From Escherichia phage Qbeta, in sequence record NC_001890.1: a stretch of 4,215 nt of DNA. One strand, 5' to 3'. Below the pieces are notes generated by a model. It did not search any database, had not been told where the DNA came from, and saw only the letters and a list, made by a program, of their open reading frames with translations. A program made the position numbers and the translations under genes. The stretch's first letter is position 1; each line of letters opens with the position of its first letter. Below are positions 2,347-4,215 of this stretch, in pieces.

Positions 2347-2368
2347 CTGCATGTCAAAGACACTGCAG
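2347..2368 (+). promoter_or_regulatory. Putative translational operator hairpin spanning the replicase start codon (coat-protein binding site that represses replicase translation, and likely packaging signal)
   Basis: CTGCAUGUC-AAA-GACACUGCAG folds by eye as a 5-bp lower stem (2347-2351 with 2364-2368), a single unpaired C2363, a 4-bp upper stem (2352-2355 with 2359-2362) and a 3-nt AAA loop, with the replicase AUG (2351-2353) inside the 5' arm. The Qbeta operator (AUGCAUGUCUAAGACAGCAU as I recall it) is also a 3-nt-loop hairpin with one bulge containing the replicase AUG. Confidence 0.75.
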
Positions 2369-4111
2369 TCGCGTAAGTCGCTTAGCGGAAAACTCCGCCG
2401 CGCTGCGAACACAAGAATCGTGGTTGAAGGTAACCTCGCACTGTCTATCGCGAATGATCTATTATCCGCGCTAGATGTAGAACCGTTTAATTCGGAAGAA
2501 GACTGTATAAGTCGTTCACCGAAATTCGGCATCTCACCAGATCAATTTAGGAATTCCTATCTTCGTGCTGAGATAATGTCGAAGTACGATTCTTTTAGCC
2601 TAGGTATTAATACCGAAGCCGTAGCATGGGAAAAGTTCCTAGCTGCGGAGGCTGAGTGTGCTAAGACGAATCTGAGACTCTATAGGCCTAACTACAATGA
2701 GGATTTCAATTTCTCATTGGGTGAGACATGTATTCACATGGCTCGCCGAAAAATAGTTAAGCTATTAGGAGATTCAGTTCCGTTTGAGGCTGTGTTGCGA
2801 CATTGCCGGTTTTCCGGCGGTGCCACAACAACGAATAGCCGTCTATACGGCCATCCGTCCTTCAAGTTTGCTCTTGCGCAAGAGTGTACCCCACGGGCTG
2901 TTCCATATGTGCAAGCTTTAAAGGCCTGTACAAACATGGACCTTGGTATTACCAAGGTTAGCCCTTTCAATAAAGCAGTTACTGTACCAAAGAACAGTAA
3001 AACTGATCGCTGCATCGCTATCGAGCCAGGCTGGAATATGTTTTTCCAGTTGGGCATTGGTGGCGTAATTCGCGAAAAGTTGCACTTGTGGAATATCGAC
3101 CTGAATGATCAGACGATTAACCAGGTGCGCGCATATTCAGGCAGCTGTAGCAATGAACTTGCTACAGTGGATCTCTCGAGCGCGAGTGATACTATTTCGC
3201 TTGCGCTCGTTGAGCTCCTGCTACCCCCTGCGTGGTTTAAAGTCCTTACGGACCTTAGGTCACGAAGGGGTATGTTGCCAGACGGTAGAATCATTACCTA
3301 TGAGAAAATTTCCTCAATGGGTAACGGTTTCACCTTCGAGCTCGAGTCGCTTATATTTGCAGCTCTTGCTCGGTCTTTATGCGAGTTACTGAACTTACAA
3401 CCGTCGAGTGTCACGGTCTATGGCGATGATATTATATTGCCATCAGACGCGTGCAGCTCGTTGATTGAAGTTTTCTCCTACGTAGGTTTTAGAACCAACG
3501 AGAAGAAGACCTTTTTCGACGGGCCGTTCCGAGAGTCGTGCGGAAAGCACTACTTTATGGGCGTTGACGTCACACCTTTCTACATACGCCACCGTATAGT
3601 GAGTCCCTCTGATCTCATACTGGTTTTGAACCAGATGTATCGTTGGGCCACGATTGATGGCGTATGGGATCCTAGGGTATATCCTGTATACACCAAGTAC
3701 AGACGTCTGCTGCCGGATATTCTCCGCAGAAATGTCGTACCTGATGGATATGGTGATGGTGCCCTCGTCGGATCTGTCCTTACCAGTCCTTTCGCAGAAA
3801 ATCGCGGTTGGGTTCGGCGTGTGCCGATGATAATTGACAAGAAGAAAGACCGAGTGCGTGACGAGCGTGGTTCATATCTCTATGAACTATGGTCGTTACA
3901 GCAGCTCGAATGTGACAGTGAGTTCCCGTTCAACGGGTCGCTGGTTGTTGGTACCAACGATGGAGTTTGCACTTACCGACACCGAGAGCGGGTTTCTACC
4001 GCTATCAGTGATTCGGTTGGCGCATACGACATCGTATGGATACCGTGCAGTAGTCGTGTCCTGGCTCCCTACGGGGACTTCCGGAGGCACGAAGGTTCTA
4101 TCCTAAAATAG
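2351..4111 (+). CDS. rep: RNA-dependent RNA polymerase, replicase beta subunit, 586 aa
   Basis: Longest ORF, last in the canonical order, ATG 2351 to TAG 4109-4111. It contains the catalytic YGDD motif (TVYGDDIILPSD; YGDD encoded at 3419-3430) and the other palm-domain blocks recalled from the Qbeta replicase (MSKT...LRRAANTRI, CRFSGGATTTN, PFNKAVTVPKNSKTDRCIAIEPGWNMFFQLGIGG, YEKISSMGNGFTFELESLIFA, FRESCGKHY, CSSRVLAPYG). The length is close to the Qbeta beta subunit (about 589 aa). Confidence 0.97.
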   Translation: MSKTLQSRKSLSGKLRRAANTRIVVEGNLALSIANDLLSALDVEPFNSEEDCISRSPKFGISPDQFRNSYLRAEIMSKYDSFSLGINTEAVAWEKFLAAEAECAKTNLRLYRPNYNEDFNFSLGETCIHMARRKIVKLLGDSVPFEAVLRHCRFSGGATTTNSRLYGHPSFKFALAQECTPRAVPYVQALKACTNMDLGITKVSPFNKAVTVPKNSKTDRCIAIEPGWNMFFQLGIGGVIREKLHLWNIDLNDQTINQVRAYSGSCSNELATVDLSSASDTISLALVELLLPPAWFKVLTDLRSRRGMLPDGRIITYEKISSMGNGFTFELESLIFAALARSLCELLNLQPSSVTVYGDDIILPSDACSSLIEVFSYVGFRTNEKKTFFDGPFRESCGKHYFMGVDVTPFYIRHRIVSPSDLILVLNQMYRWATIDGVWDPRVYPVYTKYRRLLPDILRRNVVPDGYGDGALVGSVLTSPFAENRGWVRRVPMIIDKKKDRVRDERGSYLYELWSLQQLECDSEFPFNGSLVVGTNDGVCTYRHRERVSTAISDSVGAYDIVWIPCSSRVLAPYGDFRRHEGSILK

Positions 4112-4215
4112 GGTAGCACCTGGGAGGGGTGCTATACGCACCCTAGGTTAGCAAACTTAAACTAACCTTCTCGAAAGAGAGAGTTGAGGGCTCTGCTTTG
4201 CCCTCACTCCTCCCA
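4112..4215 (+). other. 3' untranslated region with three predicted hairpins and a single-stranded ...CUCCUCCCA-3' tail (replicase initiation end)
   Basis: Exact inverted repeats read from the sequence: 4114-4120 tagcacc with 4128-4134 ggtgcta (7-bp stem, 7-nt loop); 4145-4151 aggttag with 4162-4168 ctaacct (7-bp stem, A-rich 10-nt loop caaacttaaa); 4185-4190 tgaggg with 4201-4206 ccctca (6-bp stem, 10-nt loop). The window ends in CCCA like leviviral genomes. Confidence 0.8.

Follow-up and report, generated by a model that had tools for sequence, protein, structure and literature searches.

A conserved branched stem-loop in the replicase gene as the probable core of the M-site of the Qβ-type phage MX1

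How does the replicase of a Qβ-type phage select its own genome among all the RNAs of the cell, and where in a given genome does the site that explains this choice, the M-site, lie? We considered these questions for sequence record NC_001890.1, the complete allolevivirus genome (4,215 nucleotides) of phage MX1, a Qβ strain of the species Qubevirus durum; this whole stretch is called the window below, its first nucleotide is position 1, and all of the features that we describe lie on its plus strand. MX1, like M11 and NL95, was reportedly sequenced by van Duin's group for comparative structure models of Qβ RNA. A preliminary description of the window had transferred two replicase-binding regions from Qβ by position, placing the M-site within the replicase gene at about 2540–2870 and the S-site shortly before the start of the coat gene at about 1240–1345. 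Our analysis indicates that positions 2544–2866 very probably hold MX1's version of the Qβ M-site, a replicase-docking site with a branched stem-loop at 2689–2759 as its working part, near which the 3′ end would be brought by long-range pairings. The observations behind this reading are positional homology, conserved and covarying structure, constraint at synonymous sites and long-range complementarity.

The Qβ M-site comprises nucleotides 2545–2867 (PMC4176380). We aligned the window globally to 17 further Qubevirus genomes; the 18 fall into three clades, one of MX1 and M11, one of Qβ isolates, and group IV (Qubevirus faecium, with SP, FI, NL95 and others). In this alignment the Qβ interval mapped without indels to 2544–2866, inside the 5′ third of the replicase open reading frame (ORF), and the slightly larger region 2530–2900 was 371 nucleotides long in every genome, with zero indels. 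In the record of phage SP (X07489), nucleotides 2629–2956 carry a misc_feature, 'replicase binding region m', and correspond to 2544–2871 of the window. Both positional transfers in the preliminary description were therefore accurate to 5 nucleotides or better, the S-site mapping being given below. As grounds for abandoning the assignment, that description had also named a lack of conservation, in structure or sequence, at the homologous positions; what we found there is clearly the opposite, structure that is both conserved and covarying. MX1 and Qβ are of the same species, and their M-site regions share their position, an architecture of about 70 nucleotides with stems and an unpaired bulge, and 79.5% nucleotide identity, whereas the group IV phages are 64% identical to MX1 here. 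The M-site is already known, and for a strain of the same species as Qβ its homology is trivial after alignment; the MX1 site is nonetheless now located to the nucleotide and no longer by analogy, and two aspects are modestly new, namely that the core extends into other genera and that its bulge overlaps the codons for R133 and K134.

The branched core at 2689–2759 is marked by the fold of the isolated RNA, by covariation, by synonymous constraint and by a covariance model. It consists of a basal stem (2689–2694/2754–2759), a first hairpin (2695–2703/2711–2719) with the loop UUUCAAU, a second hairpin (2720–2725/2742–2747 continued by 2727–2731/2736–2740) with the loop AUUC, and an unpaired segment of six nucleotides, GAAAAA (2748–2753), that separates the second hairpin from the basal stem's 3′ strand. 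Folded in isolation, a 77-mer covering the core (2686–2762) had exactly this branched shape as its minimum-free-energy structure, with a folding z score of −5.86, and the shape accounted for 53% of the ensemble. The GAAAAA bulge is invariant in all 18 genomes, as is the tract that contains it, CGAAAAAUA, which is predicted to be unpaired and holds the sole run of at least five A residues in the genome. A branched stem-loop likewise figures in what has been published on the Qβ M-site (PMC6071253), and the MX1 core agrees with that description in its length of about 70 nucleotides, its stems and its unpaired bulge. The preliminary description, which took the whole of 2540–2870 as the site, thus had the location right, but the functional core is narrower, a branched stem-loop of about 70 nucleotides rather than all 330. 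The U-rich single-stranded tracts that it proposed searching for are not a feature of the M-site: we found no U-rich unstructured tract in 2544–2866, where U makes up 28.5% of residues (27.4% genome-wide; 68th percentile) and the mean unpaired probability is 0.31 versus 0.34 in the flanks, and the conserved single strand is instead the A-rich GAAAAA. The Qβ M-site's branched stem-loop is said to have been described by Schuppli et al. in 1998, and the M-site itself by Meyer, Weber and Weissmann in 1981.

Covariation was assessed against a control in which the 3′ partners of a structure were slid by 1–3 alignment columns and pairing was recounted. Across 2530–2900, RNAalifold predicted 64 pairs in the 18 genomes, of which 17 showed compensatory changes. 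From this output, a single-sequence fold and inspection of the alignment we built an explicit structure of 74 pairs, in which 90.4% of cells were paired (35–46% when slid) and 16 pairs were compensatory (2–6 when slid). For the core by itself the contrast was sharper: 96.9% of cells were paired versus 33–47% in the slid controls, and 6 of its 20 pairs had compensatory changes versus 0–1. Its basal stem, which the RNAalifold consensus missed, covaries at two of five conserved pairs and reads AACUA/UAGUU in MX1; several Qβ isolates have GACUA/UAGUC there, and group IV has AAGUA/UACUU. The stems of MX1 and Qβ also differ from each other by compensatory changes, as at pair 2697/2717 (A-U in MX1, G-C in Qβ), and the first codon of the bulge is CGA in MX1 and AGA in Qβ. 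Region m of SP keeps the core, the bulge and the partner strand of the pseudoknot discussed below.

Because the core is embedded in a coding sequence, we asked how the same conservation would look if selection acted on the replicase protein only, the helices being by-products and no RNA element existing in 2544–2866. The interval does encode conserved residues, including the basic patch ARRKI, and the bulge coincides with the R133-K134-I135 codons. We therefore compared synonymous codon identity between the three clades wherever the amino acid was the same. It was 0.720 in the core, 0.591 in the M-site and 0.478 over the replicase gene, and its sliding peak across the entire gene, 0.75, was centred on position 2711, where amino-acid invariance is only about 30–40% (0.29–0.43). 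The highest synonymous conservation thus lies where residues vary, and therefore the constraint acts on the RNA, which runs counter to selection on the protein alone. Compensatory changes at 6 of 20 core pairs, set against 0–1 in the slid controls, contradict that alternative as well. The replicase gene has other peaks of synonymous conservation, of 0.62–0.68 compared with the gene-wide 0.478, at 2381–2411 (near the replicase start), at 2951–3011 (spanning the pseudoknot and long-range helix strands) and at 3611–3671.

The bulge itself is where RNA and protein meet most closely. Within 2747–2761 its codons CGA AAA AUA specify R133-K134-I135 of the replicase, and an AAG codon specifies K137; in the Qβ β-subunit the basic patch formed by R133, K134 and K137 is needed for recognition of Qβ RNA (Gytz et al., 2015, PMC4678825). 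The third positions of the R133-K134-I135 codons are invariant, including AUA for isoleucine and AAA rather than AAG for lysine, and therefore point to a constraint on the RNA. Because the bulge overlaps these codons, alanine mutants of R133, K134 or K137 would also change the RNA element; that R133A/K134A mutagenesis alters both matters for the reading of published infectivity data.

How far the core reaches beyond Qubevirus was examined with a covariance model, R1, which scored the MX1 core at 99.4 bits and the Qβ core at 98.2 bits. In a search of 80 metagenomic levivirus contigs, with replicases that share 36–45% amino-acid identity with that of MX1, R1 gave 8 matches, all on the plus strand, and an iterated model, R2, gave 16 matches with default filters and 6 weaker ones with filters off. 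All 22 of these matches start 0–15 nucleotides from the protein-aligned counterpart of window position 2684, and the few noise matches do not. Among the metagenomic loci (L018–L097 in our numbering), about 22 thus carry the core. The stems of the distant relatives are wholly different in sequence (for example, the basal stem CUCGA/UCGAG), while the bulge is retained as GAAAAAU. In the model-fitted alignments that include these relatives, 18 of 21 pairs were compensatory (7–10 when slid) and 85–93% of cells were paired (31–46% when slid).

We then searched R2 over genomes of classified genera that lay outside the training set. All three Oxychlovirus genomes matched (60.8–69.8 bits), each match starting at replicase residue 112, and Noehsivirus gave matches of 36 bits (starting at residue 112) and 17.6 bits (starting at about residue 110); weak matches at the correct position came from Omohevirus and Owenocuvirus. 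In soil and sludge Oxychlovirus and Noehsivirus the core, at about residue 112, occupies 2303–2383 of L098, 2414–2494 of L099, 2293–2373 of L101 and 2338–2424 of L106. R2 found no match in Glincaevirus, Buhdavirus, Shihovirus or MS2 (Emesvirus), and in MS2 the core model found none anywhere even with filters off; MS2 belongs to the same family and its replicase also uses host factors, but its genome gave no core match. An Oxychlovirus core, when folded alone, takes the same branched shape (z score −5.26). A common shape built from stems of entirely different sequence is hard to reconcile with by-products of protein selection, as are compensatory changes at 18 of 21 pairs against 7–10 when slid. 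The peptide motif does co-occur with the RNA matches, as that explanation would have it, and we nevertheless consider it scarcely credible that no RNA element exists here.

Within the M-site interval, deep conservation belongs to the core, which is detectable outside Qubevirus, unlike the three-way junction upstream of it (described below); this confinement of deep conservation to the core agrees with mutational work on Qβ. A bolder proposal, which we put forward tentatively and think rather more likely to be wrong than right, is that the core is an old cis-acting replication element of several Fiersviridae genera (Qubevirus, Oxychlovirus, Noehsivirus and uncultured relatives) that has no Rfam family, and that its A-rich bulge doubles as the R133/K134 codons, such that the RNA signal and a protein surface helping to read it share nucleotides and co-evolve. 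The core model could help to annotate replication signals of RNA phages known from metagenomes, such as the soil and sludge leviviruses, and could serve the design of minimal replicable RNAs.

If the core holds the replicase, two long-range pairings are suited to bringing the 3′ end near it. The 3′-terminal hairpin U1 (4186–4205; stem 4186–4191/4200–4205, with one compensatory pair) has an 8-nucleotide loop, UCUGCUUU (4192–4199), and the CUGCUUU within it (4193–4199) has its complement, AAAGCAG, at 2972–2978, 1221 nucleotides upstream, a strand that is invariant in 18 of 18 genomes. In Qβ, the partner of this pseudoknot likewise lies about 1200 nucleotides upstream and is essential for replication (PMC3561173). 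One nucleotide past the pseudoknot strand begins UACUGUAC (2980–2987), which forms with GUGCAGUA (4045–4052) a helix of 8 base pairs that spans 1058 nucleotides, is paired in 18 of 18 genomes and includes two compensatory pairs. Taken together, the U1 stem, the pseudoknot and this helix of about 1 kb were 96.7% paired, compared with 33–54% when slid. Both long-range pairings known from Qβ, the U1-loop pseudoknot and the helix of about 1 kb, thus have matches in MX1, with the equivalence of the 8-base-pair helix judged from distance and position only. The 5′ strands of both lie about 105 nucleotides downstream of the M-site interval and about 215 nucleotides downstream of the core, and so the conserved pseudoknot that the preliminary description had proposed searching for is present but outside the interval. 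The U1 loop is invariant in 14 of the 15 genomes with complete 3′ ends; the exception is the record of Qβ strain HL4-9, which has CUGCUUA for CUGCUUU and would thereby lose one pair of the pseudoknot. The maturation gene holds another AAAGCAG, at 566–572. In Oxychlovirus, a search for the pseudoknot gave different candidate pairings in two genomes, whose 3′ ends look incomplete.

These pieces suggest a sequence of events modelled on Qβ. The replicase holoenzyme would dock at the M-site of the plus strand before the genome is copied. By analogy with Qβ, ribosomal protein S1, anchored to the β-subunit through its domains OB1–2, would bind the core through OB3, and the basic patch of the β-subunit would probably join S1 in binding it. 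The pseudoknot (2972–2978/4193–4199) and the helix (2980–2987/4045–4052) would tie the 3′-terminal domain to the neighbourhood of the M-site, so that an enzyme held there would find the 3′-CCA end near its active site and could start minus-strand synthesis. Structured elements within polymerase genes also recruit the replication machinery in other plus-strand viruses, as with the RII(+)-SL of tombusviruses and the cre of picornaviruses, and long-range RNA–RNA contacts couple them to the 3′ end. These elements work similarly to the M-site but are not known to share sequence or structural homology with it, and they are bound by viral proteins, whereas the adaptor of the Qβ type is the host ribosomal protein S1.

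A branched structure that is real might nevertheless serve mainly for something other than docking, such as a packaging contact with the coat or maturation protein, regulation of how ribosomes move along the replicase gene, or a shield against host nucleases. The genome is densely structured (mean z score −6.1), conserved helices in it are common and can be multi-purpose, and binding in this strain is predicted by homology. In Qβ, however, RNA of about 70 nucleotides from the M-site is a specific competitor of genomic RNA in minus-strand synthesis and binds OB3 of S1 (Takeshita et al., 2014, PMC4176380), and removing a stem or the unpaired bulge lowers initiation (PMC4176380). In MX1 the core bears the strongest synonymous constraint of the gene and adjoins the two pairings that would fetch the 3′ end. 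A main role other than docking is on this evidence unlikely.

Several points weigh against reading 2544–2866 as the docking site. Binding of S1 and the replicase, and the role in initiation, would be carried over to MX1 from experiments on Qβ, which is function by homology. The coordinates of the core and of the long-range helix probably match the original Qβ ones, as judged from secondary descriptions and from distances (about 70, 1000 and 1200 nucleotides). Few independent events lie behind the covariation within Qubevirus, which comprises essentially three clades, and the alignments that include metagenomic sequences, having been fitted to the model, lean towards its structure. The strands of the predicted pseudoknot never vary and hence are beyond the reach of covariation. 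The invariance of the bulge is confounded by the peptide motif x-K-I, which is kept in all 22 loci that bear the RNA element; because the two co-occur, the distant loci do not allow selection on the RNA and on the peptide to be told apart at the bulge. Finally, we discarded folding stability as evidence for the site: the interval folds much better than shuffled sequences (z score −5.6), but 41 windows of 371 nucleotides across the genome average −6.1 (range −2.3 to −10.3), so that nearly all of them do likewise and thermodynamic stability is not specific to the M-site.

The S-site homolog bears on a further alternative. Alignment placed the Qβ S-site (1247–1346) at 1245–1345 of the window, just upstream of the coat start codon at 1343, and 'region s' of SP (1331–1443) at 1245–1359. 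This segment, which has an unpaired probability of 0.48 versus 0.34 in its flanks and is poor in G (18%), falls where the genome is least structured (1057–1523; z scores of −2.3 to −2.9). It is not rich in U, which makes up 29% in MX1 (27% for the genome; 28–30% in MX1, M11, SP and FI) versus 38% in Qβ; what is retained is a pyrimidine tract at about 1290–1300 and the invariant ribosome-binding region of the coat gene. The M11 record has an N around 1310, in this region, and both this and the divergent loop base of HL4-9 may be sequencing artefacts near difficult regions. The drift in composition from 38% to 29% U, which shows that sites bound by replicase and S1 can change within the species, could be taken to mean that the MX1 replicase recognizes its template otherwise, at another internal site or through the 3′ domain alone, and that the element at 2689–2759 is vestigial in MX1. 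A vestigial element would not be expected to carry the strongest synonymous constraint of its gene; moreover, pairing in the core stands at 96.9% over all clades, its bulge is invariant, and the MX1 score under the model (99.4 bits) matches that of Qβ (98.2 bits). We regard loss of function in MX1 as very improbable.

Beyond the core, the interval contains several other conserved helices. Upstream lies a three-way junction (2594–2656), made up of a closing helix (2594–2601/2649–2656), an invariant hairpin, GGUA/UACC (2603–2614), and a long hairpin of 13 base pairs (2619–2648) that is 97.9% paired with three compensatory pairs. A covariance model of this junction gave no convincing match outside Qubevirus. 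Downstream of the core are a hairpin at 2796–2827 (13 pairs, 86.8% paired, three compensatory) with the U-rich loop GUUUUC at 2809–2814, a small hairpin, GCCGU/ACGGC, at 2838–2851 (95.6% paired, one compensatory pair) and, just beyond the interval, a hairpin at 2870–2885. An alternative from RNAalifold, which pairs 2668–2672 with 2840–2844 and 2847–2850 with 2855–2858, is as compatible with the data as the 2838–2851 hairpin and shows almost no covariation. Another of its alternatives, 2566–2569/2650–2653, was rejected for weaker pairing (14–18 of 18 genomes). A scan of 2340–2600 against 2760–3000 found no helix that closes the whole M-site domain at 90% pairing or more, and indels in the upstream alignment may mask one.

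In group IV (SP, FI, NL95 and others), three helices are shifted by 1–2 nucleotides in register relative to group III: the closing helix of the junction, which persists there with a slip of 1 nucleotide, the top of hairpin 2 of the core, and the 2870–2885 hairpin (alignment columns 65–72/120–127, 198–202/207–211 and 341–346/351–356, respectively). Because of these shifts, pair counts made at fixed columns understate conservation in group IV. Within the loop of the 2796–2827 hairpin, UUUUCC (2810–2815) is complementary, mostly by G·U pairs, to GGGAGG at 4123–4128, with at least 16 of 18 genomes able to form each pair; this could be a competing contact, or chance. As read by eye rather than computed, GGGAGG at 4123–4128 is also complementary to the 3′-terminal CCUCCCA.

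The genome that frames these elements has ORFs for the maturation protein A2 (56–1321), the coat protein (1343–1744, with read-through to 2332 giving A1) and the replicase (2351–4111). Rfam covariance models run against the whole window gave no family at or above its gathering score; the sole match, to mir-451, was a sub-threshold chance match (20.2 bits, where the gathering score is 66.5; E = 0.71) and was set aside. The replicase protein is 100% identical to NP_046752.1 and to UniProt O64308, 'Qbeta virus (strain MX1)', which identifies the window as MX1, a phage whose own record is AF059242. Over its full length the window is 88.8% identical to the M11 genome, and about 75% identical to the Qβ isolates.

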